Below, in pieces: positions 1,354 to 64,000 of a DNA stretch of 64,000 nt. Position 1 is the stretch's first letter; each line of letters begins with the position of its first letter. This stretch comes from Mustelus asterias (lineage: Eukaryota). The notes under the pieces were generated by a model. The model ran no database searches. It saw only the letters and a list, made by a program, of their open reading frames with translations, and was not told the origin of the DNA. Made by a program: the position numbers and the translations under genes. The stretch spans positions 39,618,001-39,682,000 of the forward strand of contig NC_135802.1 in assembly GCF_964213995.1 (NCBI RefSeq). Direction: 5' to 3'.

Positions 1354-3277
1354 TGGGTAGAATTCTTCCAACCAGCCTTTGCGGGCGGATGTGTTGAATC
1401 TGGTGGGAGTCAACAAAAAGTCAAACCTGCCGGCCTAAAATCCTATTGCAATTCCCCTAATGGGGGGGGGGTCTTTCTTCCCCCTGGCAGGTTGTACAAA
1501 TGTTATTTGCATTCCTTTGCAACACATGAATGGTCATTAAAACAGCAGACCGCTGGCATCCCATCAGGCCTTTTAATCTTGCGTCACACCCACGAGAATT
1601 TACGTCCGCGTCAAGCCCAAATTACTAGTGAAAGGCGTGCACAAGGCATCTCTATTTCACCAGAGACTGTAAGGTGAGTACAACAGCTTTCTGCCATAGT
1701 GCTGCATTGCTCCTGATGTGCTGTTCACTGGGCAGACTGGTTCCTGCCTCTATCTCTATGCCAAACTGGTCGTCATGGACAGCACTGAGCTGCTGGACCC
1801 ATGGACCCTCCTGTGTCACTGAGTCAGATCAATACTGCTCCAAGCATTGAAGTGTACAAGGGTCTCCTTGATCCTGATGCCACACAGCAGTGTTTATCTG
1901 GACAGAACTGTGCTGTGGAACTCATGGTCCAAATTTCGACTGGGTGTGGAGTGTGAGGAAGGCCAGGGCTGAGGGGGTTGTGGCCTATCAAAGACAAGGG
2001 GGCAAGGGCTGTGCAAGATGTGGGAGGCTGTGGGTGAGGGCTCACGATGGTAGGGAGAGGGGCAAGTAGAGGGATGGAGGAGAAGAACAATGGCAAGCAG
2101 AAGGAACACCGAGGGGAGGGAAGCTAGACCCCGACAAGGCTTAGTTTAACCCTAAACCCCTGGACTTCAGGGGTTTAATTGTGAGGAGAGATTATACAAA
2201 TTAGACCTGTTTTCTCTCGAATTTAGAAGGTTAAGGGGTGATCTGATCAAAGTCTTCAAGATACCAAAAGTAAAATACAGAGTAGATAAACTATTTCCAC
2301 TGGTTGGAGATTCAGGTGACCATAATTCCATAACATTTTGGGTCGTTATGGATAAGGACAAGAGTGGCCCTCGGGTAAGGTTGCTGAATTGGGCGAGGGC
2401 CAATTACACCCAAATTAGACAGGAACAAGGGAAAGTGTTTTGAGAGCGGCTATATGAGGACAAATCTATGTCTGGCATGTGGGAGGCTTTTAAAGGCCAG
2501 TTGATTGAAGTACAGCACAGGCATGTCCCCACAAAAATGAAGGATAGAAATGGCAGGATTCGAGAACCATGGATAATGAGGGAAATTGTAAGCTTCGTCA
2601 AAAAGAAAAAGGAAGCATACGATAGGTCTGGGCATCTAAAAACTGACAATGCCCTTGAGGAATATAGTGAAAGTAGGAAGGAACTTAAACGTGGAATTAG
2701 GAGGCTTAAAAGGGACCATGAAATACCTTTAGCAAACAGGGTCAAGGAGAACCCCAAGGGTTTTTATGCATATATTAGGAGCAAGAGGGTAGCAAGAGAA
2801 AGAATAGGCCTATTCAAGGACAATGGAGTGAAGCTATGAGTGGAGCCACAGGAAGTGGGTGAGATTCTTAGTGAGTACTTTGTATCGGTATTCACCAAGG
2901 AGAAGGGCATGACAGATGTTGAGGTCAGGAATAGGTGTGTGAATGTTCTAGAGAATGTCAATATATCGAAGGAGGAAGTGTTGGGAATCCTAAAATGCAT
3001 TAAGGTAGACAAGACCCCAGGGCATGATGGGATGTATCGCAGGTTACTGCGGGAGGCAAGGAGAGAAATAGCTGGGACCTTAACAAATATCTTCACATCC
3101 CCTTTGACCACAGGTGAGGTTCCAGAGGATTGGAGAATAGTCAATGTTGTTCCCTTGTTTAAGAAAGGAAGCAGAGATAATCCAGGAAACTATAGGCCAG
3201 TGAGCCTCACGTCAGTGGTGGGGAAGCTTTAAAGGGGGAGGTGGCTAGATGGGTGGAGAACTGGCTTGGTCACAGAA

Positions 3278-3675
3278 ATGATGTGGAGATGCCGGCGTTG
3301 GACTGGGGTAAACACAGTAAGAAGTTTAACAACACCAGGTTAAAGTCCAACAGGTTTATTTGGTAGCAAAAGCCACACAAGCTTTCGAAGCTCTAAGCCC
3401 CTTCTTCAGGTGTGGGAATTCTGTTCACAAACAGAGTTTATAAAGACACAGACTCAATTTACATGAATAATGGTTGGAATGCGAATACTTTTACTGGTAA
3501 GTATTCGCATTCCAACCATTATTCATGTAAATTGAGTCTGTGTCTTTATAAACTCTGTTTGTGAACAGAATTCCCACTCACCTGAAGAAGGGGCTTAGAG
3601 CTTCGAAAGCTTGTGTGGCTTTTGCTACCAAATAAACCTGTTGGACTTTAACCTGGTGTTGTTAAACTTCTTACT
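3278..3675. mobile_element. Penelope-like fold-back (palindromic pLTR) insertion #1, 12-bp TSD TTGGTCACAGAA
   Basis: 38-nt tail 3278-3315, arms 3316-3490 and 3499-3675, TSD at 3266-3277 and 3676-3687. The sequence matches the 3' end of the PLE at 30407. Confidence 0.93.
3575..3618 (+). ncRNA. Minimal type I hammerhead ribozyme (A-type); mirror copy at ~3373-3414 (-)
   Basis: CAC-CUGAAGA-A-GGGGC/UUAGA/GCUUC-GAAAGCUU-GUG: conserved core, stem II, stem I CAC/GUG, palindromic AGCU in place of stem III. Confidence 0.75.
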
Positions 3676-5020
3676 TTGGTCACAGAAGACAGAGGGTGGT
3701 AGTGGAAGGGTCTTTTTCCGGCTGGAGGCCTGTGACTAGTGGTGTTCCGCAGGGCTCTGTATTGGGACCTCTGCTGTTTGTGATTTATATAAATGATCTG
3801 GAAGAAGGTGGAACTGGGGTGATCAGTAAGTTTGCGGACGACACAAAATTGGCAGGACTTGCAGATAGTGAGGAGCATTGTCAGAAGCTACAGAAGGATA
3901 TAGATAGGCTGGAAATTTGGGCAAAGAAATGGCAGATGGAGTTCAATCCTGATAAATGCGAAGTGATGCATTTTGGTAGAAATAATGTAGGGAGGAGCTA
4001 TATGATAAATGGCAGAACCATAAAGGGTGTAGATACGCAGAGGGACCTGGGTGTGCAAGTCCACAGATCCTTGAAAGTGACGTCACAGATGGAGAAGGTG
4101 GTGAAGAAGGCATATGGCATGCTTGCCTTTATAGGACGGGGCATAGAGTATAAAAGTTGGGGTCTGATGTTGCAGATGTATAGAACGTTGGTTCGGCCGC
4201 ATCTGGAATACTGTGTCCAGTTCTGGTCGCCACACGACCAGAAGGACGTGGAGGCTTTGGAGAGAGTACAGAGGAGGTTTATCAGGATGTTGCCTGGTAT
4301 GGAGGGGCTTAGTTATGAGGAGAGATTGGGTAAACTGGGGTTGTTCTCCCTGGAAAGACGGAGGATGAGGGGAGACTTAATAGAGGTGTATAAAATTATG
4401 AAAGGCATAGATAGGGTGAACGGTGGGAAGCTTTTCCCCAGGTCGGTGGTGACGTTCACGAGGGGTCATAGGTTCAAGGTGAAGGGGGGGATGTTTAACA
4501 CCGATATCAGACGGACATATTTTACACAGAGGGTGGTGGGGGCCTGGAATGCGCTGCCAGGCAAGGTGGTGGAGGCGGACACACTGGGAACGTTTAAGAC
4601 TTATCTAGACAGCCATATGAACGGAGTGGGAATGGAGGGATACAAAAGAATGGTCTATTTGGACCAGGGAGCGGCGCGGGCTTGGAGGGCCGAAGGGCCT
4701 GTTCCTGTGCTGTATTGTTCTTTGTTCTTTTGGAGAAGATACTGAGGGACAGGATATTTGCACATTTGTAAAAAAAACTGGACTAGTTAGTGACAGACAG
4801 CATGCTTTTGTGCAGGGAAGGTCATGTCTCGCCAACTTGATAGAGTTTTTTGAAGAGGTGACAAAGCTAATTGATGAGGGAAGGACTGTGGATGTGGTTT
4901 ATATGAATTTGAGTAAGGCATTTGACAAGGTCCCACATGGCAGACTGGTACAAAAACTAAAATCACATGGGATTCAGGGTGGGCTGACTAGATGGATACA
5001 GAACTGGCTTGGTTATAGAA

Positions 5021-6310
5021 GTGGAGATGCCGGCATTGGACTGGGGTGAACACAGTAAGAGTTTTAACAACACCAGGTTAAAGTCCAACAGGTTTATTTG
5101 ATAGCAAATACCATTAGCTTTCGGAGTGCTGCTTCTTCGTCAAATGGAGTGGAAATGTGCTCTCAAACAGGGCACTGAGACACAAAATCAAGTTACAGCA
5201 TACTGATTAGAATGCAAATCCCTACAACCAACCAGATCTTAAAGATACAGACAATGTGGGTGGAGGGAGCATTAAGCACAGGTTAAAGAGATGTGTATTG
5301 TCTCCAGACAGGACAGCCCGCAAGTCCAGGAGTCAAGCTGTGGGGGTTACTGATAATGTGACATAAATCCAACATCCCGGTTTAGGCCGTCCTCATGTGT
5401 GCGGAACTTGGCTATCAGTTTCTTCTCAGCGACTCTGCGCTATCGTGTGTCGTGAAGGCCGCCTTGGAGAACGCTTACCTGAAGATCAGAGGCTGAATGC
5501 CCGTGACTGCTGAAGTGCTCCCCCACAGGAAGAGAACAGTCTTGCCTGGTGATTGTCGAGCGGTGTTCATTCATCCGTTGTCGTAGCGTCTGCATGGTTT
5601 CCCCAATGTACCATGCCTCGAGACATCCTTTCCTGCAGCGTATCAGGTAGACAACGTTGGCCGAGTTGCAAGAGTAGGTACCAGTACCTACTCTTGCAAC
5701 TCGGCCAACGTTGTCTACCTGATACGCTGCAGGAAAGGATGTCCCGAGGCATGGTACATTGGGGAAACCATGCAGACGCTACGACAACGGATGAATGAAC
5801 ACCGCTCGACAATCACCAGGCAAGACTGTTCTCTTCCTGTGGGGGAGCACTTCAGCCGTCACGGGCATTCAGCCTCTGATCTTCAGGTAAGCGTTCTCCA
5901 AGGCGGCCTTCATGACACACGACAGCGCAGAGTCGCTGAGCAGAAACTGATAGCCAAGTTCCGCACACATGAGGACGGCCTAAACCGGGATGTTGGATTT
6001 ATGTCACATTATCAGTAACCCCCACAGCTTGCCTCCTGGACTTGCAGGCTGTCTTGTCTGGAGACAATACACATCTCTTTAACCTGTGCTTAATGCTCCC
6101 TCCACCCACATTGTCTGTATCTTTAAGATCTGGTTGGCTGTAGGGATTCGCATTCTAATCAGTATTCTGTAACTTGATTTTGTGTCTCTGTGCCCTGTTT
6201 GAGAGCACATTTCCACTCCATCTGACGAAGGAGCAGCGCACCAAAAACTAATGGTATTTGCTACCAAATAAACCTGTTGGACTTTAACCTGGTGTTGTTA
6301 AAACTCTTAC
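5021..6310. mobile_element. Penelope-like fold-back insertion #2 (~630-bp arms containing GIY-YIG coding sequence and pLTR), TSD TTGGTTATAGAA
   Basis: Centre ggtac-ca-gtacc at 5677-5688. Mirror ORFs 5553+ and 5567-. ORF 5770..6018 is the GIY-YIG C-terminus. TSD at 5009-5020 and 6311-6322. Confidence 0.94.
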
Positions 6311-8665
6311 TTGGTTATAGAAGACAGAGAGTAGCAGTGGAAGATTGTTTTTCAGAATGGAGATCTGTAGCTAGTGGTGTTCCACAGGGATCAGTGCTGG
6401 GACCTCTGTTATTTGCAGTATATATAAATGATCTGGAGGAAAAGTGGATGGTCTGATTAGTAAGCTTGCCGATGACATGAAGATTGGTGGAGTTGCTGAG
6501 TTGGGGATTGTCAGAGGATACAGCAGGATGTAGATAGATTGGAGACTTGGGCACAGAAATGGCAGATGGAGTTCAGTCCGGACAAATGCGAGGATTTTGG
6601 AGGATCAAATTTGGGTGTGAATGATACTGTAAATGGCAGAACCCTTAGGAACATCAACATACAGAGTGATCTGGGCATGCAGGTCCACAGTTCCCTAAAA
6701 GTGGCAACACAGATGGCCAAGATGATTAAGAAAGCATATGGCATGCTTGCGTTCATCAGCAGAGGCATTGAGTACAAGAGTTTGGAAATCATGTTGCAGC
6801 TATATAAAACCTTGGTTAGGCTGCATCTGGAGTATCGCGTGCAGTTCTGGTCACCAGACTAACAGGAAGTGAAAGCTTTGGAGAAAGTGCAAAGAAGGTT
6901 CACCAGGATGTTGCCTGGTCTCGAGGGTGTTGACAATGAGAAGAGGTTGAATAAACTAGGATTGTTTCACTGGAAAGACGGAAGCTGAGAGGAGACCTGA
7001 ATGAGGTCTACAAAATGATGAGAGGCGTAGACAGGGTGGATAGTCAGAGGGATTTTCCTAGGATGGAACTGTCAATTATAAGGGGGCACAGGTTCAAGAT
7101 GAGAGAAGGAAAATTTGAAGGAGATGTGCAGTGGAAGTTTTTCACACAGAGAGTGGTCGGTGCCTGGAACGTGCTGCCAGAGAAGGTGGTGGAAGCAGGC
7201 ACATTAGCAGCATTTAAGAGGCACCTGGATGTGTACATTAATAGGGAGGGAATAGAGGGATACGGACTGAGTAAGGGCAGAAGGTTTTTTAGTTTAGTTA
7301 GGGCATCATGATCGGCACAGGCTTGGAGGGCCTGTTCCTGTGCTGTACTGTTCTTTGTTCGTTGTTCTATTCTAGAACTAGGGCATAGTCTAAAAATTAG
7401 GGCCAGACCATTCAGGCGAGATGTTGTAAAGTATTTCTACACACATAGGATGGTACAGGTTTGGAACTCACTTCCACAAATGGCAGTTGATGTTAGATTG
7501 GGCTAACTTTAAATCTGAGATAGATAGATTTTTGTTTAGCAAAAGTATTAAGGGATATGGCCAAAGGCAGTTATATGGAGTTAGGCCACAGATCAGCCAT
7601 GATCTCATTGAATCGCGGAACAGGCTTGAAGGGCTGAATGGCCTACTTCTGTTCCTGTTTCCTATCAAAAGCACTTCACTGAATGAATCACCTTTTGAAA
7701 TGTAGTGATTGGAGGCAGCAGTCATTTTGCACTAGCAAATTCCTGAGATTTCGTGATAATGGCTGGAAAAGAAATGTTGGCCAGGAAGCCAGGAGAACTT
7801 TCTGCTCTTGTGCTATTAGACATTCAGCATCCATCCAAATCTACAGCCGACACTCAATTTAACATTCCATCTAAAGAATGACACATTGATAAGTTTGTGC
7901 AAACAATGCAACCTTCCAACAAAAACCTAAATACACAATGAATGCTACTCACACCCAACGTTGTATGCAAGCTCTCTTGGGTGTTAATGTCTGTACCTTT
8001 CCAATGGCCAACATCTATCTATTGGAACGGTCTTCCATAAATGACAGTTGATGCTAGATTAATTGCTATCTTTAAATCTTAGTTAGATAAGTTCTTGTTA
8101 AGCAAAGGGATTTGGGCCAAAGGCAGGTACATGGAGTTAGGCCACAGGTCAGCCATGATCTCCTTAAATGGCGAAACAGGCTTGATGGGCTGAATGACCT
8201 TTTCCGTTCCTACCTTCCAAAGGCTGCAATGCATGAAAAGCTCACAAACAAGGGGGTCAAAGTGATAACATGTTTACTGGAAGGGAATACACAGACTCCA
8301 GATGCAGTGGGCATGGGTGCCTCACAATTGATGGGCTCTGGGAGTGTGGTTGAATTGGGAAACAGTCATCTTCTTGAAGCTACTTGCCTTTTCCCCCTGG
8401 GTTGCTAATATTCTGCATGGTCTGGTGAAGACTGAGCTGGAGAGATTGATGTAAGTGTGCTGAACTGGTATTCAAATATGGCGCCGAGACCTTCAAACTC
8501 ATCAGCTGGCAGAGGGCATTCGAATCAGTTGGCAGCCCGCCAGAAGATTCGGAGGAGAACTTGTATGTGCATAATTAATAATCGAACTAGCGAAGGCCTA
8601 TCAGAACATTTTTTTAAGTGCGACTACTGTTAACTTATAACTATAATGCACTTTCACTGACAATT

Positions 8666-9893: not shown

Positions 9894-10836
9894 TTGTGTC
9901 ACCTGATGTTACCAGCTTTGTTTTGCTGGTGAAAACGGCTTGATGCCCGAAATGACATGATTAACAGGGGAGGGGGAGTGGGGGGGGGCGGTGATCGGCA
10001 AGGAGGTAGGATTTGGGGGAGAGACCAGCACGAGATGAGGCAGGAGATTTCCCAGTTCACTGGTAGATCAGGGCATCTGTGCAAGACGCCCCAAGAGCTC
10101 TGCAGCTGGCTTCACTGGGAGTTTAGCATCCTCGTCCATGCCTCCACCCCCGCTTACTGGGGAGAATCGTTGGGGCTTTTCTTTTGCACTGAGTGCCGTA
10201 GGATTGCTACTCGTGGCTTGCTGAAAAGAATGGCGTCTTTCTCTCCTGTTTTCTCCTTGTTCGGCACTTAGAACTTTTTTTGTAAGCTAGCGCCATAAGT
10301 GTCACAACAGCGTGAAAACGGGAGTCCTGCATGCCCCCTTTTGGGTGGGCTTGACACTGCAATCTTTCAGGAATCTGTCGATTTCTTTGACAGCTGGGAG
10401 CTTTGCGCCGGCCGGGGGGTGCGTGAATCCTAAGTCCACCAGTGAAGCTGGCTTCAGAGCACTCAGGCGCCATTGCGCTGCTGCCCTGATCTGTTACTGG
10501 ACCGAGTGACCACCTCTCACCCTCCCACAATCCCATCGTCAGCTCCCCTGCCCGCCCCGCCCCACACACACTTACATGGGTCGCCAGCGTCAGGGCATCA
10601 GGACTTCCAGATGAGTCTGCTGGCGGAGCCTGACATGCCCCCACCCCCGCTGTCGTGACCTCCTCCATGACCCACCCTACATAGCCAGCCCCCCCACAAC
10701 CCCTCCTTTTTGCACAACCTCTCCCTTACATGTCCACCTCCCTTGCAGAACTCCTCCCTCACCAGCACCCCCCCCCCCCCCCCCCCCCACCCTTGCATGA
10801 CCACTCCCCGGAGGACACTGCCTGTCCATTAGGCTT

Positions 10837-10941
10837 GATGTGGAGATGCCGGCGTTGGACTGGGGTAAACACAGTAAGAGTTTTAACAACACCAGGTTAA
10901 AGTCCAACAGGTTTATTTGGTAGCAAATGCCATTAGCTTTC
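10837..10941 (-). mobile_element. Short PLE 3'-end fragment (tail + part of pLTR, ending inside the hammerhead)
   Basis: gatgtggagatgccggcgttggactgggg...gcaaatgccattagctttc matches the left arms of the other PLE insertions. Confidence 0.88.
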
Positions 10942-19481: not shown

Positions 19482-21092
19482 CATAAGACATAGGAGCAGA
19501 ATTAGGCCACTCGGCCCATCGAGTCTGCTCCGCAATTCAATCATGGCTGATTTTTTTCTCATCCCCATTCTCCTGCCTTTTCCCCATAACCCCTCATCCC
19601 CTCATTAATCAAGAACCTATCTATCTCTGTCTTAAAACACTCAATGACCTGGCCGCCACAGCCTTCTGCAGCAAAGAATTCCACAGATTCACCACTCTCT
19701 GGCTGAAGAAATTCCTCCTCATCTCTGTTTTAAAGGATCATCCCTTTAGCCTGAGGTTGTGCCCTCTGGTTCTAGTTTTTCCTCCTAGTGGAAACATTCT
19801 CTCCACGTCCACTCTATCCAGGCCTTGCAGTATCCTGTAAGTTTCAATAAGAACACCCCTCATCCTTCTAAACTCCAACAAGCACAAACCCAGAGTCCTC
19901 AACCGATTCTCATATGACAAGCTCTTCATTCCAGGGATCATTCTTGTGAACCTCTTCTGGATCCTTTCCAACGCCAGCACATCTTTCTTTAGATATGGGT
20001 CCCAAAACTGCTCACAATACTCCAAATGGGGTTTGACCAGAGCCTTATACAGCCTCAGAAGTACATCCCTGCTCTTGTATTCTAGCCCTCTCGACATGAA
20101 TGCTAACATTGCATTTGTCTTCCTAACTGCCGACTGAACCTGCACATTAACCTTAAGAGAATCTTGAACAATGACTCCCAAGTCCCTTTGCATTTCTGAT
20201 TTCCTAAGCATTTTCCCATTTAGAAAATAGTCTGTGTCTCCATTCCTCCTTCCAAAGTGCATAACCTCACACTTTTCCACATTGTATTCTATCTGCCACT
20301 TATTTGCTCACTCCCCTAACCTGCGCAAGTCCTTCTGCAGCCCCCCTGCTTCCTCAATACTACCTGCCCCTCTACATATCTTTGTATCATCTGCAAACTT
20401 AGCAACAGTGCCTTCAGTTCCTTCTTCCAAATCGTTAATGTATATTGTGAAAAGTTGTAGTCCCAGCACTGACCCCTGAGGCACACCACTAGTCACCAGC
20501 TGCCATCCTGAGAACGACCCCTTCATCCCCACTCTCTGCCTTCTGCCAGTCGACCAATCCTCTATCTGTTTTTTACACAGAGGGACGTTTTTTACACAGA
20601 GGGTGGTGGGGGCCTGGAATGCGCTGCCAAGTAGGGTGGTGGAGGCAGACACGCTGACATCGTTTAAGACTTGCCTGGAAAGTCACATGAGCAGTCTGGG
20701 AATGGGGGGATACAACGAATGGTCTAGTTGGACCAATGAGCGGCACAGGCTTGGAGGGCCAAAGGGCCTGTTTGCTGTGCTGTAGTTTTCTTTTTTCTTT
20801 GTTCTGTGCCAGGATCTGACCCTTAACACCATGGGCGCTTAACTTATTTAACAGTCTCCTATATGGCACCTTGTCAAAGGCCTTCTGGAAATCTAAATAA
20901 ATCACATCCACATCCACATCTCCTTTATTTAACTTCCTTGTTACCTCCTCAAAGAATTCTAACAGATTTGTCAGAATTGACCTCCCCTTGACAAAGTGCT
21001 GACTCGGCCCTACTTTGTCATGCACTTCCAAATACTCTGCAATGTCATCTTTAATAATGGACTCTCAAATCTTGCCAATGACTGAAGTCAGG
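19482..21092 (-). mobile_element. 5'-truncated CR1 (RT region and 3' UTR)
   Basis: ORFs 19738..20280, 20308..20652 and 20573..21031 carry KAFDKVP, GVPQGS, FADD and HLEYC motifs. Confidence 0.9.
20570..20802 (+). mobile_element. CR1 3' end inserted antisense into the 19482-21092 CR1
   Basis: FFTQRVVGAWNALP coding sequence plus tail. TCTGT lies at both junctions, and ttttttacacagaggg is duplicated at the 5' end. Confidence 0.85.
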
Positions 21093-25349: not shown

Positions 25350-28300
25350 CGTAACTGCTGACAGGTTCTCCTGCCACCGACAGGACGGGAGGGTTTAAAC
25401 TAGTTTGGCAGCGGGGTGGGACTCAAAGCAGTAGGAGACAGAAGAGAAGGTTGAGGACAGCACGGAAGTTAAAGAGAGCACATTAAATAGTAAAGGCAGT
25501 GTCAGTAATCCTAGTACCGGACAGATCAAGCAAAAGCAGAGCAGAGAGCAAGAGAAGCAGAGAGCAAGAGAAGTCCAGATTAAACTGCATTTATTTCAAT
25601 GCAAGAGGCTTGATGGGCAAGGCAGATAAATTCAGTGCATGAATGTTTTCGTGGGACTGGGATATTATAGTAATTACTGAAACATGGCTAAGGGAGGACG
25701 GGACTGACAGCTCAATGTTCCAGGGTACAGATGCTATAGGAAAGATAGAACAGTAGGTGAGAGAGGAGGGGGAGTTGCACTTTTGGTTTGGGATATATCT
25801 GAGGGTTCGGCCACTGAGTCTATATGGGTAGAATTGAGAAATAAGAAGGGGGAAATCATTTTGATAGGGTTGTATTATAGGCCCCTAAATAGTCAGCAGG
25901 AAATTGAGGAGCAAATATATAAGGAGATTACAGCTAGCTCCAAGAAAAATAGGGTGGTATAGTAGGGGATTTTAACTTTCCCAACATTGACTGGGACAGC
26001 CATAGTAGTAGAGGGTTGGATGGAGGGAAATTTGTTGAGTGTATTCAGCAGGAATTTCTCATTCAGTATGTGGATGGCCTGACTAGAGAGAGGGCAAAAC
26101 TTGACCTCCTCTTGGGAAATAAGGAAGGGCAGGTGACAGAAGTGTTAGTGAGGGATCAGTTTGGGACCAGTGACCATAATTCTATTAGTTTTAAGATAGC
26201 TATGGAGAATGATAGGTCTGGCCCAAAAGTTAAGATTCTAAATTGGGGCATGGCCAATTTTGATGGTATCAGGCAGGAACTTTCAAAAGTTGACTGGGAG
26301 AGTCTGTGGGAAGGCGTAGGGACATCTGGTAAGTGGGAGGCTTTCAAAAGTGTGTTAATCAGGGTTCAGGGTAAGTACATTCCTCTTAGAGTGAAGGGCA
26401 AGGCTGGTAGAAGTAGGGAACCCTGGGTGACTCGGGGATATTGAGGCCCTGGTCAAGAAGAAGGAGGCATATGACATGCATAGGCAGCTGGGATCAAGTG
26501 AATCCCTTGAAGAGTATAGGGGTGTAGGAGAAGAGTTAAGAGAGAAATCAGGAGGGCAAAAAGGGACACAAGATTGTTTTGGCAGATAAGGCAAAGGAGA
26601 ATCCAAAGAGCTTCTACAAATACATAAAAGCCAAAAGAGTAACTAGGGAGAGAGTAGGGCCTCTTAAGGATCAACAAGGTCATCTATGTGCGGATCCACA
26701 AGAGATGGATGAGATCCTAAATGAATATTTCTCATCAGGATTTACTGTTGAGAAAAGCATGGATGTGAGGGAACTTGGGGAAATAAATAGTGATGTCTTG
26801 AGGAGTGTACATATTACAGAGAAGGAGGTGCTGGAAGTCTTAAAGCGCATCAAGGTAGATAAATCCCCGGGACCTGATGAAGTAATCCCAGGACATTGTG
26901 GGAGGCTAGGGAGGAAATTGCGGGTTCCCTAGCAGAGATATTTGTATCATCGATAGTCATAGATGAGGTGCCTGAAGATTGGAGTGTGGCAAATGTTGTG
27001 CCTTTGTTTAAAAAGGGTTGCAAGGAAAAGCCTGGGAACTACAGGCCGGTGAGCCTCACATCTGTGGTGGATAAGTTGTTGGAAGGTATTTTGAGAGACA
27101 GGATCTACAGACATTTAGAGAGGCAAGGACTGATTAGGGACAGTCAGCAAGGCTTTGTGAGTGAAAAATCATGTCTCTCAAATTTGATTGAGTTTTTTTG
27201 AAGGGGTAACCAAGAAGGTAGATGAGGGCAGTGCAGTTGATGTTGTCTATATGGACTTTAGCAAGGCATTTGACAAGATACTGCATAGTAGGTTGTTGTA
27301 CAAGGTTAAATCTCACAGGGTGCAGGGTGAGGGAGCTAAACGGATACAAAATTGGCTTGATGACAGAAGGCAGAGGGTGGTTGTAGAGAGTTGTTTTTCT
27401 AACTGGAGGCCTGTGACTAGCGGTGTGCCTCAGGGATCAGTGCTGGGTCCACTGTTATTTGTCATTTATATTAATGATTTGGATGAGAATATAGGAGACA
27501 TGGTTAGTAAGTTTGCAGATGACACCAAGATTGGTGGCATAGTGGACAGTGAAGAAGGTTATCTCGGATTGCAAAGGGACCTTGATCAGTTGGGCCAGTG
27601 GGCTGACAAATGGTAGATGAAGTTTAATTTAGATAAATGCGAGGTGATGCATTTTGGTAGATTGAACCAGGGCAGGACTTACTCAGTTAATGGTAGGACA
27701 TTGGGGAGAGTTACAGAACGAAGAGATCTCGGGATACAGGTTCATAGCTCCTTGAAAGTGGAGTCACAGGTGGACAGAGTGGTGAAGAAGGCATTCAGCA
27801 TGCTTGGTTTCATTGGTCAGAACATTGAATACAGGAGTTGGGATGTCTTGTTGAAGTTGTACAAGACATTGGCAAGGCCACACTTGGAATACTGTGTACA
27901 GTTCTGGCCACCGTATTATAGAAAGGATGCTATTAAACTAGAAAGAGTGCAGAAGAGATTTACTAGGATGCTACCAGGACTTGATGGTTTGAGTTATAAG
28001 GAGAGGCTGGATAGGCCGAGACTTTTTTCTCTGGAGCGTAGAAGGCTGAGCGGTGATCTTGTAGAGGTCTATAAAATAATGAGGGGCATAGATCAGCTAG
28101 ATAGTCAATATCTTTTCCCAAAAGTAGGGGAGTCTAAAACTAGAGGGCATGGGTTTAAGGTGAGAGGGGAGAGATACAGAAGTGTCCAGAGTGGCAATTT
28201 TTTCACACAGAGGGTGGTGAATGTCTGGAACAAGCTGCCAGAGGTAGTAGTAGAGGTGGGTACAATTTTGGCTTTTAAAAAGCATTTAGACAGTTACATG

Positions 28301-28436: not shown

Positions 28437-30505
28437 AATTCCACCAACCGTGTGGGGAACCGTCGGTCAGCTGAGAATTTTCACAAATGACCCAAATCAT
28501 GGCCAGAGGCAGGGCTTGCTATCCTACTAAGGACATGTTGTGCTTTTAAAGCTGGTGGGCCTATGGGAGGCTCTCCAGCACCAAAAAAGTGACAGGCTGC
28601 CTTTCATAGTAGCTGAGGTGGAAGGCATCCCAAGATGGAGGTGCTCCTCTTCAACTGTGTGAAATTTAAATTAGAAAATAATCTCAGTGGCTGGGATTGG
28701 GGGAGGGGATCCTGTGGCCTGCAGCTATAGTTGAAGCTGGAAAGGCATGTGCTCCCCCACCCTTCCCACTGTCAGTCACCAGCTACCCTCTTCCCCATTG
28801 CATCCAGGGTTCTGGAAGCTGACTGGATTCCAGCAATAGGTTTTAATTAAGCTTTTAAACAGTTGAATTGGTTCCAACAACACTCAAGAAGCTCAACACC
28901 TTCCAGAGCGAAGCAGTCCACTTGATCGGCACCCCATCCACCAACCTAGACATTCACTCCTTCCATCACTGATGCATAGTGGCAGCTGTACTATAAACAA
29001 CATGCTCTGCAACAACTCACCAAGACTCATTCGATAACATCTTTCAAACTCACGACCTTTACCACCTAAGAGGACAAGGACAGCAAGCTACACAGCATCT
29101 TGAATTGGAACCATATCACCATTCCTTCACTGTAATTGGACCAAAATTCTGGAATTCCCTTCCACATGGACCACAGTGGTTCACAAAGCAGTTCACCACC
29201 ACCTTCTCGAAGTATGGGCAATTAATGATGTCCTCGCCTGTGACACACCAATCCCATAAAATATTTTTTAAAAAACATCCATCTGTAGGCAGGTAGTCCT
29301 GCCAGACCCCAATCCTATTTCCAGGAAAATAACTTGGGGTGGCATGGAGACAGAGAACAGGCATGCCATCTGACGCCGCAAATTTTGACACCTTCCCACC
29401 TCATGCCCCTGTTCCCATAAGACCTAAAAATTAAGATCTTTGGGTTGTGCAGCTGGAGACAAATTGCTGTTCTACCACTGATATTCTAAACTGAAAGGTA
29501 AGCACAGAGCGTAGTTTATCTGTACCTCTTAAAGATCAGATATCTGAGTACTTCGTTCATACTTGTGAGTGTAAACCACCCTAATCCAGCAGAACCCAGA
29601 CATCTCTTGTCAAATATAATCTGGCTACAGGAGTTGGCATACATAAGGGTGGAAAGTTTTAGAGTATCATAGCACAAAAATAGTTGAGTCCTGTAGTCCC
29701 TCAAAATGAATGTAATGAAAATAACAGGTTTGAGAAAACAGAAATAAGAATAGCTGGTCAAAGAATGAGGGGAAGTGAGGATTATTAGAGACTGCGTCAC
29801 CCTCAGCTACCATCGTAATATTGGTCCAGATTTTGCAGTCAGCGGTGAAGTGACAGAACTTGTCTCTCACCTTGAAGAAAGCTGTCTATATGATCTAGCT
29901 ATCTCTCTGGTGTGAATTTCCTTTTTCCTATATAGATTTGAATTTGGCGGCAAGTCGAGGGAATCTCCAGGATCCAGCAACAGTGATGCCATCAAGCAGG
30001 ATGAGCAGCGAATCACATTGAAGAATTCTCTCGGGCAAACCAGGAAGTAAAAAGCCATGATTAGGCCATACACATTAGAAGCTGAAATATCAAACTTTTT
30101 TGAACAAATGAAATTTGAAATTCTTAGCAGCATGTAAAAATTTGGAATTACAAAAACATAAAGCTATGTTTCCAGAGTTGTCCTTCAGTAGTAGTTAAGA
30201 CTGAAAGTTCTCATCAGTGTGGTGATTTCTATTGTAGTCTGCAAGGGTACAGCTTGTTCTACAGAGAAGTGCAGAATTACTGACAAAAACTTCTGAATTT
30301 AACAGTGCATGTGTGGATTCTGCAAATTGTGGTCAGTTTCAGAGGGGAAGCAATGGCAAACACTGACAATTACAACTTTCTCCCAGCATTCTGGGTGGCA
30401 TGGTAGTCATGATGTGGAGATGCCGGCGTTGGACTGGGGTAAACACAGTAAGAAGTTTAACAACACCAGGTTAAAGTCCAACAGGTTTATTTGGTAGCAA
30501 AAGCC

Positions 30506-30544
30506 ACACAAGCTTTCGAGGCTCTGAGCCCCTTCTTCAGGTGA
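30506..30544 (-). ncRNA. Minimal hammerhead ribozyme (A-type) in the PLE pLTR
   Basis: The - strand reads UCAC-CUGAAGA-A-GGGGC/UCAGA/GCCUC-GAAAGCUU-GUG. Confidence 0.75.
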
Positions 30545-30825
30545 GTGGGAATTCTGTTCACAAACAGAACTTATAAGACACAGACTCAATTTACATGAAT
30601 AATGGTTGGAATGCGAATACTTACAACTAATCCAGTCTTTAAGAAACAAAACAATGGGAGTGGAGAGAGCATCAAGACAGGCTAAAAAGATGTGTATTGT
30701 CTCCAGACAAGACAGCCAGTGAAACTCTGCAGGTCCACGCAACTGTGGGAGTTACAAATAGTGTGACATAAATTCTGATTCTAGGATCGCATGATAAAGA
30801 CTCAGGAGGAAAAAAGCAGAAATAT

Positions 30826-32759
30826 TTATGTGAAATAGTGTGACATAAACCCAATATCCCGGTTGAGGCCGTCCTTGTGTGTGCGGAACCTGGCTATCAG
30901 TTTCTGCTCCGCGACTCTGCGCTGTCGTGTGTCGCGAAGGCCGCCTTGGAGAACGCTTACCCGAATATCAGAGGCCGAATGCCCGTGACCGCTGAAGTGC
31001 TCCCCAACAGGAAGAGAACAGTCTTGCCTGGTGATTGTCGAGCGGTGTTCATTCATCCGTTGTCGCAGCGTCTGCATGGTCTCCCCAATGTACCATGCCT
31101 CGGGACATCCTTTCTTGCAGCGTATCAGGTAGACAACGTTGGCCGAGTTGCAAGAGTATGTACCGTGTACCTGGTGGATGGTGTTCTCACGTGAGATGAT
31201 GGCATCTGTGTCGATGATCCGGCACGTCTTGCAGAGGTTGCTGTGGCAGGGTTGTGTGGTGTCTTGGTCACTGTTCTCCTGAAGGCTGGGTAGTTTGCTG
31301 CGGACAATGGTCTGTTTGAGGTTGTGCGGTTGTTTGAAGGCAAGAAGTGGGGGTGTGGGGATGGCCTTGGCGAGATGTTCGTCTTCATCAATGACATGTT
31401 GAAGGCTCTGGAGGAGATGCCGTAGCTTCTCCGCTCCGGGGAAGTACTGGACAACGAAGGGTACTCTGTCCACTGTGTCCCGTGTTTGTCTTCTGAGGAG
31501 GTCGGTGCGGTTTTTCGCTGTGGCGCGTTGGAACTGTTGATCAATGAGTCTAGCGCCATATCCTGTTCTTATGAGGGCATCTTTCAGCGTCTGGAGGTGT
31601 CTGTTGCGATCCTCCTCATCCGAGCAGATCCTGTGTATACGGAGGGCTTGTCCGTAGGGGATGGCTTCTTTAACGTGTTTAGGGTGGAAGCTGGAGAAGT
31701 GGAGCATCGTGAGGTTATCCGTGGGCTTGCGGTACAGTGAGGTGCTGAGGTGACCGTCCTTAATGGAGATGCGCGTGTCCAAGAATGCAACCGATTCCGG
31801 AGAGTAGTCTATGGTGAGCCTGATGGTGGGATGGAACTTGTTGATGTCATCATAGAGTTGTTTCAGTGATTGTTCACCATGAGTCCAAAGGAAGAAAATG
31901 TCATCGATGTATCTAGTGTATAGCACCGGTTGAAGGTCTCGTGCGGTGAAGAAGTCTTGTTCGAACCTGTGCATGAAGATGTTGGCATATTGAGGTGCAA
32001 ATTTGGTCCCCATGGCTGTTCCGTGTGTCTGGATGAAGAACTGGTTGTTGAAGGTGAAGATATTGTGGTCCAGGATGAAGCGGATGAGATGTAAAATTGC
32101 ATCTGGAAACTGGCAGTTGTTGGCGCTGAGCACTGAGGCCGTTGCAGCAATGCCATCGTCATGGGGGATGCTGGTGTAGAGTGCTGAGACATCCATTGTG
32201 ACGAGGAGCGCTCCTGGTTCAACTGCTCCATGTGTGCCGAGTTTCTGTAGGAAGTCCGTCGTGTCGCGACAAAAGCTGGGGGTTCTTTGTACAATGGGTT
32301 TCAGGATGCCCTCGACATAGCCGGAGAGGTTCTCGCACAGGGTCCCATTGCCCGATACGATGGGACGGCCGGGTGTGTTTGCCTTGTGTATCTTCGGGAG
32401 GCAGTAGAGATCTCCAACGCGGGGAGTACGTGGGATGAGAGCACGGAGGGTGTTCTGAAGGTCCGGATCAAAGGTCTTGATCAGAGTGTTGAGTTGACGG
32501 GTGTGTTCTTTGGTCGGATCTGCAGGTAACTGTCTGTAGTGTTCCTCGTTGTTGAGTTGTCGGTACACTTCTTTGCAGTAATCCGTTCTGTTCAGTATGA
32601 CGATGGCCCCTCCTTTGTCTGCTGGTTTGATGACAATGTTGCGGTTGGTCTTGAGAGCGTGGATGGCATTACGTTGTGCTTGGGTGATGTTCGGGGCTGT
32701 CTTGTGAGTGCGGCTGATGAATTTGGTGTTGACGCACCTCCTGACGGCTTGGGCATACA
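30826..32759 (-). CDS. PLE polyprotein, N-terminally truncated: reverse transcriptase + Cys-rich linker + GIY-YIG endonuclease
   Basis: IKPADKGG, LPKIHK, GRPIVS, DVSALYTSI, GTAMG and RYIDD RT motifs; linker PCHSNLCKTC; VVYLIRC..C...YIGET and R..EH. No internal stops. The listed N-terminus MPTTVPTTV is read from SINE sequence. Confidence 0.93.
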
Positions 32760-41173: not shown

Positions 41174-44100
41174 GGGGGGTGCACCTGAACCAGAGGGGCA
41201 CCAATATCCTAGGAGGGAAATTTGTTACGGCTCTTCAGGGGGCTTTAAACTAATTTGTCAGGGGAGTGGGAAAAGGAGTTGTAGTCCAGAAGTCGGTGAG
41301 GGTGGTGAGGTATTGGGGAAGGTATCAAGGTCAAGGGTGGGTACCGGTAGACAGGAAGGTGGGTTGAAGTGTGTCTACTTCAATGCAAGGAGCATCCGGA
41401 ACAAGGTAGATGAACTTGGGGCGTGGATTGGTACTTGGGACTACGATGTTGTGGCCATTACGGAGACGTGGGTAGAACAAGGACAGGAATGGTTGTTGGA
41501 CGTTCCGGGGTATAGATGTTTCACTCAGTGTGGGGAAGCTGGTAAAAGAGGTGGAGGAGTGGCATTGTTAATCAAGGATAGTTTAACGGCTGCGGAAAGG
41601 CACTTCGAGGGGGATCTGCACACTGAGGTAATATGGGCTGAGGTTAGAAATAGGAAAGGAGCGGTCACGTTGTTAGGAGTTTACTATAGGCCCCCAAATA
41701 GTAATAGAGATGTGGAGGAAGAAATTGCTAAGCAGATTATGGATATGTGTGGGGGTCACAGGGTAGTTGTCATGGGGAACTTTAACTTTCCAAATATTGA
41801 TTGGAACTTTTGTAGGTCAAATAGTTCGAATGGGGCAGTTTTTGTGCAGTGTGTGCAGGAGGGTTTCCTGACACAATATGTGGATAGGCCGACAAGAGGT
41901 GAGGCCACATTGGATTTGATACTGGGAAATGAACCGGGCCAAGTGTTAGATTTGGTTGTGGGAGAGCACTTTGGAGATAGTGACCACAATTCGGTGTCTT
42001 TTGTTATTGCAATGGAGAGGGATAGGGCCGTACGGCAGGGCAAGGTTTACAATTGGGAGAGAGGTAATTATGATGCGATTAGGCAAGAATTAGGGGGCAT
42101 AAGTTGGGAACAGAAACTGTCAAAGAAAGGAACTAATGAAAAGTGGAACTTTTTCAAGGAACAAATACTGGATGTCCTTGATAGGTATGTCCCTGTAAGG
42201 CAGGGAGGAAATGGCCGAGTGAGGGAACCATGGTTCATGAAAGAGGTGGAATGTCTTGTGAAAAGGAAGAGGGAAGCTTATGTAGGGATGAGGAAACAAG
42301 GTTCAGATGGCTCGATTGGGGGTTACAAGTTAGCAAGGAATGAGCTGAAAAAGGGGCTTAGGAGAGCTAGGAGGGGACATGAGAAGTCCTTGGCGGGTCG
42401 GATCAAGGAAAACCCCAAGGCTACTCTTATGTGAGGAATAAAAGAATGACCAGGGTGAGGTTAGGGCCGGTCAAGGACAGTAGTGGGAACTTGTGTATGG
42501 AGTCAGTAGAGATAGGCGAGGTGATGAATGAATACTTTTCTTCAGTGTTCACCAAGGAGAGGGGCCATGTTTTTGAGGAAGAGAAGGTGTTACAGGCTAA
42601 TAGGCTGGAGGAAATAGATGTTCGGAGGGAGGATGTCCTGGCAGTTTTGAATAAACTGAAGGTCGATAAGTCCCCTGGGCCTGATGAAATGTATCCTAGG
42701 ATTCTTTGGGAGGCAAGGGATGAGATTGCAGAGCCTTTGGCTTTGATCTTTGGGTCTTCGCTGTCCACGGGGATGGTGCCAGAGGACTGGAGAATGGCGA
42801 ATGTTGTTCCTCTGTTTAAGAAAGGGAATAGAAATGACCCTGGTAATTATAGACCGGTTAGTTTTACTTCGGTGGTTGGTAAATTGATGGAAAAGGTCCT
42901 TAGAGATGGGATTTGCGACCATTTAGAAAGATGCGGATTAATCCGGGATAGTCAGCACGGATTCGTGAAGGGCAAGTCGTGCCTCACAAATTTGATAGAA
43001 TTTTTTGAGGAGGTAACTAAGTGTGTTGATGAAGGTAGGGCAGTTGATATCATATACATGGACTTTAGTAAGGTGTTTGATAAGGTCCCCCATGGTCGGC
43101 TTATGATGAAAGTGAGGAGGTGTGGGATAGAGGGAAAGTTGGCCGATTGGATAGGTAACTGGCTGTCTGATCGAAGACAGAGGGTGGTGGTGGATGGAAA
43201 ATTTTCGGATTGGAGGCAGGTTGCTAGCGGAGTGCCGCAGGGATCAGTGCTTGGTCCTCTGCTCTTTGTGATTTTTATTAATGACTTAGAGGAGGGGGCT
43301 GAAGGGTGGATCAGTAAATTTGCTGATGACACCAAGATTGGTGGAGTAGTGGATGAGGTGGAGGGCTGTTGTAGGCTGCAAAGAGACATTGATAGGATGC
43401 AAAGCTGGGCTGAAAAATGGCAAATGGAGTTTAAACCTGATAAATGTGAGGTGATTCATTTTGGTAGGACTAATTTAAATGTGGATTACAGGGTCAAAGG
43501 TAGGGTTCTGACGACTGTGGAGGAACAGAGAGATCTTGGGGTTCATATCCACAGATCTCTAAAGCTTGCCAGTCAAGTGGATAGAGCTATGAAGAAGGCC
43601 TATAGTGTGTTACCTTTTAGGGGGTTGGAGTTTAAGAGCCGTGGGATTATGCTGCAACTGTACAGGACCTTGGTGAGACCACATTTGGAATATTGTGTGC
43701 AGTTCTGGTCACCTCACTATAAGAAGGATGTGGAAGCGCTGGAAAGAGTGCAGAGGAGATTTACCAGGAAGCTGCCTGATTTGGAGGGTAGGTCTTATGA
43801 GGAAAGGTTGAGGGAGCTAGGGCTGTTCTCTCTGGAGCGGAGGAGGCTGAGGGGAGACTTAATAGAGGTTTATAAAATGATGAAGGGGATAGAGTGAACG
43901 TTCAAAGACTATTTCCTCGGGTGGATGGAGCTATTACAAGGGGGCATAACTATAGGGTTCGTGGTGGGAGATACAGGAAGGATATCAGAGGTAGGTTCTT
44001 TACGCAGAGAGTGGTTGGGGTGTGGAATGGACTGCCTGCAGTGATAGTGGAGTCAAACACTTTAGGAACATTTAAGCGGTTATTGGATAGGCACATGGAG

Positions 44101-44201: not shown

Positions 44202-44209
44202 ATCTTTCA

Positions 44210-44483
44210 TTTCATGTATGTGTAGTTAATAATTGAAGCAATTTTCCTGTTAACGTGTGTTTATAATGTTGATTATAGATGTAGAATATAGGTGGCTAGC
44301 CAAGATAGTGTTTGCTTTGTTTGACTCTTGTATATTAAAATTTATTTTGTTTTAAACTGTCGAATTTTTGTGGCTTCATTCTTTCAGTAAATAACTGGGA
44401 TTTCGAATTTCTTTCTTTTGAAAAGAAGGTACTGGTCTCAACTGAGATCATAACATTGGGGGAGCTCTGTAGGATTTTGAATC
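44210..44483 (+). mobile_element. Probable LTR 3' end (…gatcataaca) followed by a degenerate tRNA-Pro-like primer-binding site
   Basis: The segment ends in CA at ~44455, then tgggggagctctgtaggattttgaatc resembles TGGGGGCTCGTCCGGGATTTGAACCC. The same gatcataaca end is at ~51140 and, inverted, at 53542. Confidence 0.4.
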
Positions 44484-44733
44484 ATGATGTGGAAATGCCG
44501 GCGTTGGACTGGGGTAAACACAGTAAGGAGTCTAACAACACCAGGTTCAGGTCCAACAGGTTTATTTGGTAGCAAACGCCACTAGCTTTCGGAGCGCTGC
44601 TCCTTCGTCAGATGGAGTGGAAATCTGCAGATTTCCACTCCATCTGACGAAGGAGCAGCGCTCCGAAAGCTTGTGGTGTTTGCTACCAAATAAACCTGTT
44701 GGACTTGAACCTGGTGTTGTTAGACGCCTTACT
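44484..44733. mobile_element. Penelope-like fold-back insertion #3 (250 bp, no spacer), 12-bp TSD GGATTTTGAATC
   Basis: 38-nt tail 44484-44521, centre aaatctg|cagattt, end CTTACT. TSD at 44472-44483 and 44734-44745. Confidence 0.93.
44640..44676 (+). ncRNA. Minimal hammerhead ribozyme (B-type); mirror copy at 44579-44615 (-)
   Basis: CCAU-CUGACGA-A-GGAGC/AGC/GCUCC-GAAAGCUU-GUGG. Confidence 0.75.
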
Positions 44734-46108
44734 GGATTTTGAATCCACAGGTGGATATGGATCCTGGGATTTTCTAAATTTGTTTAGACTGACTGGATTT
44801 TCCAATGAGTTTCATTAACTGCTTGAATCCTGTGTATGGTTCATCCCTGATCCCTTTTGGATTATTGCCCATTAAGTGTACACAATTATGGAAATAAGTT
44901 AGTTATACCTGATATACACTCAATGGTTTAATCCCAACGCTTTACATAACATAACAATATGTAATTCTCATATCTCAATTAGTAATATGAGTAATAGATG
45001 TTTTTAAACGTGAAATCTCGTACAACTACACATGTTCAATTGAAAAGTAAAGCAGAACATGCAAAACAAATGCAACCTTGATGACAATGAAAATAAAAGA
45101 GAGAATAATACAGGAAAATTAGGTTTATCACACATCAGGAACAAAATTTGATTAGTAACCAGAAAGATTATGGATATTGTACAGGGGAATTGAAACAGTT
45201 AACATTGGAGGCAAAGAGAGATTGCGAGAAAAATTTAGCAGGCAGCATTAAATTTAATCTTAAGACATTTTATAAACGTAGAATGTGGAAGTTATTTGCC
45301 AGGGAAAAGGTTGGGCTTATTAAGGCTCCTCTTTTGTTAGTAAGATGTGGTCAGTGATAGCTAATTACCATTTCTACTTGGGGAAAATGGGCTAAATGTT
45401 ATCCATAGCCTTGGAGAAGGGGATAGGTGAAGCAATTTTGGGAATCAAATTACAAGATTTCCTACAAACTCAGCATTATCAAAGATAGAGACAGCTTGGA
45501 TCTTGTGTAGTTTGCAGCTCACTGAGAATCAAGGGAGCAAAATAGATAAATGTTAACGAGGCCTGTATCTTAGGTAGAGCAAATACTAACTACATTGTTA
45601 CAGAATGTGGGTGGGAGCTCACACTCAATTTACAGACAGGGTTTATGAGTGAAAAAGAGGCTGGAAGATTAACCTAGCTTGGAGCGAGAGGAAGAAGTCT
45701 ACAGTGGCTGCACTGTGAAAGATAATTAGCCTGGGAGCAGACAGAAAGAAAGTTGTTGTAGACATTGGCCAGAAGATTTTGGGTTGTGTGTAAGCTCCAA
45801 GTTCAGAAGACAGAGGAAAATAATTTTCCAAGATCTGTGGAACAGGAGAATCAGGAGAATAGAGCTATTAGAAAGCAGGGCTCTTTCAAAGAGCCAGCAC
45901 AGGCATGATGGGCCAAATGTCCTCTTTTTGTGCTCTAAGTTTCTATGATTCTACTTATTCAGCAAAAATTAACACATGAAGGAATGGACCGAGGATGGAA
46001 AAGGGAAGGAAAACATTTTTATTTCACTCAAGATCAGATTTTGATGGATCTTCGCATTTCAGTGAATAATCTTTAGTTAAGTATTCAATTTCTGCCATTT
46101 CTTTGCAG

Positions 46109-57477: not shown

Positions 57478-57761
57478 ATAGAATCATAAAGTGCAGAAGG
57501 ACCGACCACAATCCCACCCAGGCCCTGTCCCCATAACCTCATGCATTTACCCCAGCTAGTCTCCGTGACACTAAGGGGCAATTTAGCATGGCCACCTAAC
57601 CCGCACATCTTTGACTGTGGGAGGAAGCCGGAGCACCCGGAGGAAACCCACACAGACATGGGGAGAATGGGCAAACTCCACACACACTGACCCAAGCCAG
57701 GAATTGAACCCAGGTCGCTGGTGCTGTGAGGCAGCAATGCTAACCACTGTGCCACCGTGCC
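57478..57761 (-). mobile_element. tRNA-derived V-SINE
   Basis: Reverse-complement head gctaaccactgtgccaccgtgcc, V-domain and tail. Confidence 0.85.
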
Positions 57762-62695: not shown

Positions 62696-63607
62696 GACAT
62701 GAGGTTGCTTTGGCAGACAGAGTGAAGGAAAATCCAAAGAGCTTCTATAGGTATGTTAGGAGCAAAAGGATAAAGAACAAAGAACAAAGAAAAATACAGC
62801 ACAGGAACAGGCCCTTTGGCCCTCCAAGCCCGTGCCGCTCCCTGGCCCAAACTAGACCATTCTTTTGTATTCCTCCATTCCCACTCCGTTGAGGGATAAA
62901 ATTGGTCCTCTTGAAGACCAGAGTGGTAGACTGTGTATGGAACCAAAAGAGATGGGGGAGATACTAAATGGTTTTTTTGCATCCGTATTTACTGAGGAAA
63001 TGGGCATGGAGTCTACGGAAATAGGGCAAATAGGTAGGGAGGTCATGGAACCTTTACAGATTAAAGGGGAAGCAAATCTTGAGGCAAATCAGAGTGGATA
63101 AATCCCCAGGACCGGACAGGGTATTCCCACGGACGTTGAGGGAAGCTAGTGTTGAACTTGCAGGGGCCCTGGCAGACATATTTAAAATGTCAGTATTCAC
63201 GGGGGAGGTGCCGGATTATTGGAGGGTGGCTCATGTTGTTCCGTTGGTTAAAAAAGGTTCCAAAAGAAATCCGGGAAATTATCAGCCAGCAAGTTTGATG
63301 TCGGTGGTGGGCAAGTTATTGGAAGGTGTGATAAGGGATAGGATCTACAAATATTTGGATAGACAGGGACTTATTAGGGAGAGTCAACATGGCTTTGTGC
63401 GTGGTAGGTCATGTTTGACCAATCTATTAGAGTTTTTCGAGGAGGTTACCAGGAAAGTGGATGAAGGGAAGGCGGTGGATGTTGTCTACCTGGATTTCAG
63501 CAAGACCTTTGACAAGGTCCCTCATGGGAGGTTAGTTAGGAAGGTTCAGTCACTGGGTATACATGGGGAGGTAGTAAATTGGATTAGACACTGGCTCAAT
63601 GGAAGAA
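62696..63607 (+). mobile_element. 5'-truncated CR1 ORF2, interrupted at 62773-62890 by an antisense CR1-C-type 3' tail and at 63608 by a PLE
   Basis: ORFs 62710, 62865 and 63079..63615 (VDKSPGPD...KTFDKVPH...WIRHWLNGR). Confidence 0.9.
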
Positions 63608-64000
63608 CACAGTAAGGAGTCTAACAACACCAGGTTAAAGTCCAACAGGTTTATTTGGTAGCAAACGCCACTAGCTTTCGGAGCGCTACTCCTTCGTCAG
63701 ATGGAGTGGAAATCTCAGATTTCATGTCACACTATTTGTAATCCCCACAGCTTGCCTGGACATGCAGAGTCTCACTAGCTGTCCTGTCTGGAGACAATAC
63801 ACATCTCTTTAGCCTGCCTTGATGCTCTCTCCACTCACATTGTTTGTATCTTAAAGACTTGATTAGCTGTAAGTATTCGTATTCCAACCATTATTCATTT
63901 TGAGTTTGTGTCTTTATATGCCCTGTTTGTGAACAGAATTCCCACTCACCTGAAGAAGGGGCTTAAGGCTCCGAAAGCTTGTGTGGCTTTTGCTACCAAA
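63608..64000. mobile_element. Penelope-like inverted insertion #4 (hybrid arms), running off the window end
   Basis: Antisense pLTR arm 63608-~63716 with B-type hammerhead, then sense 3' end from ~63721 (FMSHYL* and UTR) with A-type hammerhead at ~63947-63983. Confidence 0.88.

Follow-up and report, generated by a model that had tools for sequence, protein, structure and literature searches.

In a 64,000-nucleotide stretch of the genome of Mustelus asterias (NCBI RefSeq assembly GCF_964213995.1, contig NC_135802.1, positions 39,618,001 to 39,682,000; hereafter the window), Penelope-like elements (PLEs) interrupt copies of a repeat that we take to be CR1, from the label used in an earlier note on this DNA (the original prediction) and from characteristic motifs. 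PLE insertions within and outside CR1 share a symmetric target motif, CTG-NN-[12-13 bp duplication]-NN-CAG. We consider it probable that a Neptune-type PLE uses this palindromic motif genome-wide, that its peaks in CR1 are a by-product, and that the motif is cut by a dimer. Insertions would pile up on single CR1 nucleotides because conserved CR1 codons supply three abundant motif matches. The original prediction was that the PLE is directed to one exact nucleotide of the CR1 reverse transcriptase (RT) gene. For whole counts the 3.68-Gb genome was pattern-searched, and ~0.96 Mb of sequence was retrieved for detail.

Target motif and CR1 hotspots

The motif was described with a matrix trained on 37 two-arm insertions outside CR1. 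Five of 42 calls had been dropped (L139, L180, L182 and L190, with flanks resembling long interspersed elements, and a second pairing in L184). At 28 of the 37 sites, TG-N15/16-CA has the duplication at its centre, compared with 4.4% of random positions, and at 12 CTG..CAG does so (0.4% random). The spacing is 16 in 22 sites and 17 in 11. At +3 to +5 past each duplication end the symmetric matrix gives C 0.89, A 0.92 and G 0.66, with a duplication length of 12 in 68% and 13 in 29%. Genome-wide, CAG occurs 14 nt past the element end 13,702 times, versus 2,691 times at 24 nt; judged by eye, ~9 of the first 100 of the 13,702 rows are at CR1 hotspots.

An 18-letter PLE end pattern occurs 198,731 times in the genome. 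We identified three CR1 hotspots, located in the codons for W-L-x-x-R-x-Q-R-V (site A), V-T-S-G-V-P-Q-G (site B) and T-G-E-V-P-E-D-W (site C). In 3,021 matches a PLE end lies upstream of the CR1 G-V-P-Q-G-S codons at a distance of at most 90 nt; by eye, site A accounts for 76 of the first 100, site B for 21 and other positions for 3. The same end occurs upstream of CR1 F-A-D-D-T (the next 90 nt) only 68 times, and F-A-D-D-T is conserved at least as well as G-V-P-Q-G-S (51 versus 37 of 77 CR1 copies). PLE ends directly flank the W-L-x-x-R-x-Q-R-V codons ~2,300 times from one side and ~1,270 times from the opposite side. Tail-less arms follow CR1 D-K-V-P-H, on the 5' side, in 1,365 matches; among the first 100, 93 have lengths of 114-121 and are read as site A in the opposite orientation, an assignment made from length, as most of these rows stop short of the junction. 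Site C was known from a few loci, then predicted by the matrix and then counted genome-wide: there are 1,590 PLE ends, and 96 of the first 100 examined by eye are at the exact site, 37 with a tail.

The share of tail-less ends at site A is 3.5-6.7% (best 4.3%), versus 0.024% by chance, an excess of ~180x after correction for motif loss. CR1 motif matches number 161,819 genome-wide. No fewer than 1.4% of CR1 copies carry an insert at site A in one orientation, and the true share is probably 3-5%. Genome-wide junctions therefore peak at the site A codon, far above chance, instead of spreading uniformly along CR1, and the suggestion that the nuclease or the priming step favours this motif is supported. 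The idea of one exact nucleotide survives in that the peak is nucleotide-precise; it fails in that CR1 has at least three hotspots plus scattered sites. Minor recurrent CR1 sites were also seen at ~829 and ~700 (reference positions), the former also among the matrix's weaker predictions. Two other organisms each have one joint compatible with a tail-less arm at this site; the short sides, of 21 and 24 letters, are too short as proof.

The three hotspots together account for ~7-8% of insertions, and ~92% lie elsewhere (hand estimates); the term safe-harbour hyperparasite was thus an overstatement. Among insertions collected blind to their flanks, in three samples, 93 of 127 are outside CR1. A random 400 kb sample (n=21) has none at A, 1 at B, 1 at another CR1 site and 19 outside CR1. 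The first 1.7 Mb of C1, which is CR1-rich (n=80), has 12 at A, 1 at B, 3 at C, 12 at other CR1 sites and 52 outside. A tail-query sample (n=26) has 2 at A by script (4 by eye; the script undercounts), 1 at B, 1 other and 22 outside. Here, insertions outside CR1 are those that lack a protein-level match to the three CR1 frames of the window, and they include untranslated or decayed CR1.

When applied to CR1 (~1,500 positions, copies from random blocks), the matrix from non-CR1 sites ranks 782 (A), 384 (C) and 841 (B) highest. Predicted insertion shares are 3.1% for A and 2.0% each for C and B, with 0.3% for the next site, and in 11 of 12 bootstraps A, C and B all rank among the first four. Each of the three CR1 matches is present in roughly 200,000-300,000 copies. 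The same CTG-N16/17-CAG motif that governs insertions outside CR1 thus predicts the CR1 hotspots and their frequencies by itself, and the original proposal of CR1-directed targeting is not upheld.

These shares also bear on the converse possibility, that the preference evolved for conserved CR1 codons in the manner of a homing endonuclease, with all other sites off-target. The three best CR1 sites do lie in conserved ORF2 motifs and together receive the ~7-8% noted above, 16 of 80 insertions in the CR1-rich 1.7-Mb region are at A, B or C, and site A is hit maybe ~2x as often as the average perfect site. However, most flank-blind insertions are outside CR1, none of the 21 in random blocks is at A, the observed share is already predicted without CR1, and many CR1 copies carry TTG, a poorer match. 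CTG is present at 16 of 19 filled A sites and at 8 of 29 empty ones; the difference has P 3e-4, or P 0.017 when CTG is compared with TTG only, and subfamily age is a confounder. We regard adaptation to CR1 as improbable, and equally improbable its extension, in which the nuclease is tuned to the RT codons of a rival retrotransposon and CR1 subfamilies escape by a CTG-to-TTG change.

Amplification of a few CR1-PLE composites as units could also generate recurrent junctions. Five loci (L002, L003, L004, L016 and L021) are indeed one duplication of >3 kb at 97-99% identity, and L121 and L122 are identical; each group was counted once. Yet the inserts within one CR1 subfamily measure 215, 241, 246, 498 and 607 nt and represent three PLE subfamilies, and insertions are found in both orientations and in many host subfamilies. 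As a general cause, composite amplification is refuted for most cases by this variety, and we give it almost no credence. The independence of the events, asserted in the original prediction, holds for most cases. The five-locus composite is on five small contigs, with a short interspersed element (SINE) inside the PLE.

Junctions, element protein and proposed mechanism

The PLE has pseudo-long terminal repeats, inverted arms and an optional 30-40-nt tail that continues into the start of the open reading frame (ORF). Hammerhead-like CTGA-GA...GAAA cores occur at 7 places, as a sequence pattern only; Rfam gave no hammerhead match at the gathering score. Measured from the core end, the junctions lie at -3 to +6 and at +34 to +44, two windows that are ~37 nt apart and located at the repeat/ORF boundary. 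Duplication ends were fixed by the motif before junctions were scored, and 107 of 128 arms passed the filter, before removal of duplicates. Among 102 distinct junctions, 80 have a target end identical to the following element bases over at least 1 nt, versus 31 +/- 4 when shuffled (maximum 46), and 37 over at least 2 nt, versus 7.6 +/- 2.6. The overlap between target end and element is 1-4 nt long.

Such overlap raises the question of whether base pairing between CR1 and the element RNA, and not nuclease specificity, creates the hotspots. Sites B and C share up to 6 nt and 3-4 nt, respectively, with the RNA start windows, the overlap is general, and several long-tailed ends meet a SINE at a homologous stretch. 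At site A, however, overlaps are mostly 0-2 nt and differ by PLE subfamily, yet the junction is fixed, and the CAG, which is found at unrelated sites too, is not part of the paired end. Pure RNA-guided pairing is thereby largely refuted as a general cause, and we consider it very unlikely.

Ends with extra-long tails are joined to a SINE, presumably tRNA-like, at a stretch resembling the ORF start of the element (L202, L203, L209 and L211; window positions 30395-30420 and 32760-33070). These joints possibly reflect a pairing-driven route with no need for the motif. One locus (L221, C1:152231500-152232700) has three head-to-tail 214-nt units composed of repeat, hammerhead-like core, tail and ORF start, and by its sequence resembles a non-autonomous, retrozyme-like array. 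Another (L222, 667-3636) is a near full-length element in partial tandem, whose ORF is broken by a stop following 315 codons and, further on, by a change of frame.

The ORF at 30826-32760 encodes DKG at amino acids 47-50, the RT motif YIDD at 284, a CX4CxxC linker at 505-513 and a GIY-YIG domain from 544. Pfam RVT_1 matches amino acids 183-317. Pfam GIY-YIG gave no match in the ORF of this copy, a PDB sequence search with the element protein gave none, and the NCBIfam search gave generic RT matches only. The ORF contains Y-L-I-R-C-x3-C-x4-Y-I-G; across 73 sequences, one Cys of its two never varies, nor do the three Cys of the linker. A His pair is also seen in the sequence. The closest proteins are from sharks (78-95% identity), and relatives from turtle, amphioxus and tick are 38-45% identical. 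The linker CX2-5CxxC marks Neptune and Nematis, whereas Penelope and Poseidon lack it, according to the available text of Craig 2021 (PMC8557442). Given the linker, DKG, RT and GIY-YIG, the element therefore belongs with Neptune/Nematis and not Poseidon. Between the two we chose Neptune, the clade with this linker that has been reported from vertebrates, as stated in the accessible part of bioRxiv 10.64898/2026.07.22.740005. By these sequence features, the element is classified as an endonuclease-positive (EN+) PLE, probably of Neptune type.

The nuclease model (predicted local distance difference test, pLDDT, 89.5) is closest to I-TevI (Z 10.6, root-mean-square deviation 1.9 over 91 residues). 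Foldseek gave no match at E <=0.001, with I-TevI on top at 5.5e-3. The N-terminal 315 residues of a natural copy, modeled as a homodimer, score 0.46, versus 0.04 for the best of 3 controls. The modeled interface is symmetric and involves residues 42-77; runs have at least 52% of contacts in common, and pLDDT is at least 61. Of solved pairs, 21 of 30 reached the mark for this score, which uses no alignment, whereas 0 of 23 single chains did; the numbers for eukaryotes are 17 of 29 pairs and 0 of 30 single chains, and for animals 7 of 16 pairs. The modeling supports a predicted homodimer through N-terminal helices.

We propose that each GIY-YIG domain reads CA(G) and would nick two bases 5' of CAG, once per strand, with the nuclease likely paired as a dimer. 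The two nicks would leave 3' overhangs of 12-13 nt. A 3' stagger of this length sets both nicks on about one face of the B-DNA helix. Each 3' end may then pair briefly with RNA at one start window, at the repeat/ORF junction, and prime cDNA (complementary DNA). Joining of the two cDNAs in the middle would give inverted arms, with or without a tail.

The same motif could instead be used by a monomer that nicks the strands in turn, with spacing set by the geometry of the priming intermediate. The closest solved fold, I-TevI, acts as a monomer (available text of PMC5009752), duplication length varies between 12 and 13, and inserts that start at site A and end at site B suggest uncoupled nicks. 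Set against this are the same motif in both halves at tight spacing, the N-terminal dimer model that passes its controls, and the dimer predicted for an anole element in the accessible part of PMC11167929. We judge the monomer route unlikely, though less so than adaptation to CR1, and prefer cutting of the palindrome by a dimer.

Several points weigh against this preferred account. The matrix is based on only 37 sites, of which 4 score at or below zero, and its predicted A share ranges over 1.3-10% in 11 bootstraps, while one bootstrap lost register. A first matrix (11-12 bp only) recovered A and C and not B; the 13-bp length was included once site B duplications had been seen, although the spacing histogram outside CR1 shows 13 independently. 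Site B is over-predicted (2.0% versus ~0.8% observed, a hand estimate). Perfect sites number 145 per 400 kb and receive 12 of the 37 insertions; by hand, the hit rate is ~3% for the average perfect site and ~6% for a perfect site A, a ~2-fold excess that could be within reach of flanking bases and sampling. The nick positions are deduced from the duplications, the dimer model possibly reflects memory of similar helices, and the A-to-B inserts may mean that nicks are not always a fixed 12-13 nt apart. Finally, sites A and C are both filled in 4 of 76 CR1 copies (surveyed in C1, 0-116 Mb), compared with 0.4 expected, so local factors matter.

One further locus (L154) has three neighbouring inserts, at site C, K-V-P-H-G and site A. 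This and the A and C co-occupancy suggest hot regions, or older copies with longer exposure.

Insertions in the window

The three site A inserts begin, as originally described, right after 3277, 5020 and 63607, at the same CR1 position, and their CR1 hosts, PLE subfamilies and lengths differ. Inserts 1 and 2 have exact 12-bp duplications (3266/3676 and 5009/6311). The site of insert 1 in empty joined form, with the 12 letters shared, is present in contigs of four other organisms. Hammerhead-like cores of insert 1 are at 3409 (-) and 3582 (+). The empty sites listed earlier exist (20556 on the minus strand, 27353 and 43160). Of the seven CR1 copies in the window that reach the site A codon, three carry an insert and three do not, and the seventh (~52860) has lost the site by deletion; the three hits stand, but the denominator is six intact sites and not seven. 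The CR1 ORF has a Pfam RVT_1 match (E 3e-31).

Three further PLE inserts (~10833, ~30404 and ~44484) lie outside CR1. For the short PLE at 10833..10941, a target duplication was looked for and none was found. The 12-bp duplication expected past the window end for insert 3 is absent: CR1 picks up at site B, with ~50 nt of CR1 missing. Nor is the tail-bearing arm always antisense to CR1, since the visible arm of insert 3 has a tail of ~6 nt and both orientations are common genome-wide.

A second insert of the A-to-B kind, with ~50 nt of CR1 lost, was identified (L224, C1:43581300-43583800). Both hosts (insert 3 with L031; L224) are in one CR1 subfamily. Such inserts arose either in a single event in which two sites were nicked or by recombination of one insert with another.

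Table 1. PLE inserts and CR1 target sites in the window.
Feature	Position	Strand	Description
Site A copy 1	3261..3277	+	CTG half-site 3261-3263, 2-nt spacer, 12-bp duplication 3266-3277, within CR1 ORF2
PLE insert 1	3278..3675	.	Two inverted arms: left arm with 39-nt tail, right arm tail-less
Second duplication copy, insert 1	3676..3692	+	Duplication 3676-3687, CAG half-site 3690-3692, then CR1 again
Site A copy 2	5004..5020	+	CTG half-site and 12-bp duplication 5009-5020; CR1 subfamily differs from copy 1
PLE insert 2	5021..6310	.	Inverted; PLE subfamily differs from insert 1; contains GIY-YIG end of ORF
Second duplication copy, insert 2	6311..6327	+	Duplication 6311-6322, then CAG half-site
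Short PLE	10833..10941	-	5'-truncated, with tail, outside CR1
Empty site A	20530..20560	-	Left half of TTG type
Empty site A	27350..27380	+	Left half of TTG type
Long PLE	30404..32760	-	5'-truncated, outside CR1, adjoins SINE; carries ORF 30826-32760
Empty site A	43157..43187	+	Perfect CTG-N16-CAG; in reference CR1 copy (ORF 42383-43897)
PLE insert outside CR1	44467..44750	.	Perfect CTG-NN-[12]-NN-CAG; duplication 44472-44483 / 44734-44745
Site A copy 3	63591..63607	+	CTG half-site and 12-mer 63596-63607, single copy (no duplication)
PLE insert 3	63608..64000	.	Extends 42 nt beyond window; arms from two PLE subfamilies

Significance and comparison with known systems

A PLE family with ~199,000 exact ends provides a defined substrate and predicted nick positions, testable in a published in vitro assay, and the motif model offers a simple explanation for the inverted arms, the optional tail and the length of the duplication. 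A short symmetric motif would suffice to bring one retrotransposon thousands of times to single nucleotides of another, with no dedicated targeting needed. This is relevant to the reading of nested repeats, and the inserts offer many independent dated markers inside CR1. If adaptation to CR1 were true after all, it would be a case of a retrotransposon nuclease tuned to a rival retrotransposon. The available text of the literature covered (including PMC3846280, PMC4209133, PMC5009752 and PMC12602865; Repbase and subscription papers are outside this scope) describes no palindromic PLE target and no CR1 hotspot.

The element is like EN+ PLEs of the Neptune clade, as described in the available text of PMC8557442, in its RT followed by a C-terminal GIY-YIG, CX2-5CxxC linker, DKG motif, inverted repeats and optional 30-40-nt tail. 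It differs in that the bias associated with the linker there is for microsatellites, whereas our element targets a spaced palindrome and has a clean duplication of 12-13 bp. For PAc, a Poseidon element of Anolis, the accessible part of Frangieh 2024 (PMC11167929) reports cutting and extension of both strands, two internal RT start sites (which define the tail just inside or near the ORF start) and a predicted N-terminal dimer, all of which have likenesses here. However, PAc prefers ATT, and our element CAG on both strands at fixed spacing; PAc reportedly starts at RNA non-homologous to the cut DNA, and our element with 1-4 nt of pairing. Poseidon also lacks the linker that is present here.

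I-TevI, the closest solved fold, likewise has a short cleavage motif that coincides with conserved codons. It is a monomer with a separate DNA-binding domain and a CNNNG site, and its nicks are 2 nt apart, versus 12-13 here.

Transposons are among the known targets of non-LTR elements (available text of the Utopia paper, PMC4640811), and EN-minus PLE-X inserts in 28S ribosomal DNA (available text of Craig 2021, PMC8557442). Tx1, R1, R2/Utopia and PLE-X, as these sources describe them, share with our element repeated, nucleotide-precise insertion into multicopy sequence. Target specificity in the R2/Tx1 sense is not seen here, where site A receives ~4% of insertions and 93 of 127 are outside CR1. 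Those elements are largely confined to their targets (PMC4640811 and PMC8557442, in the text available), whereas ~92% of the copies described here are elsewhere, at a short bipartite motif.

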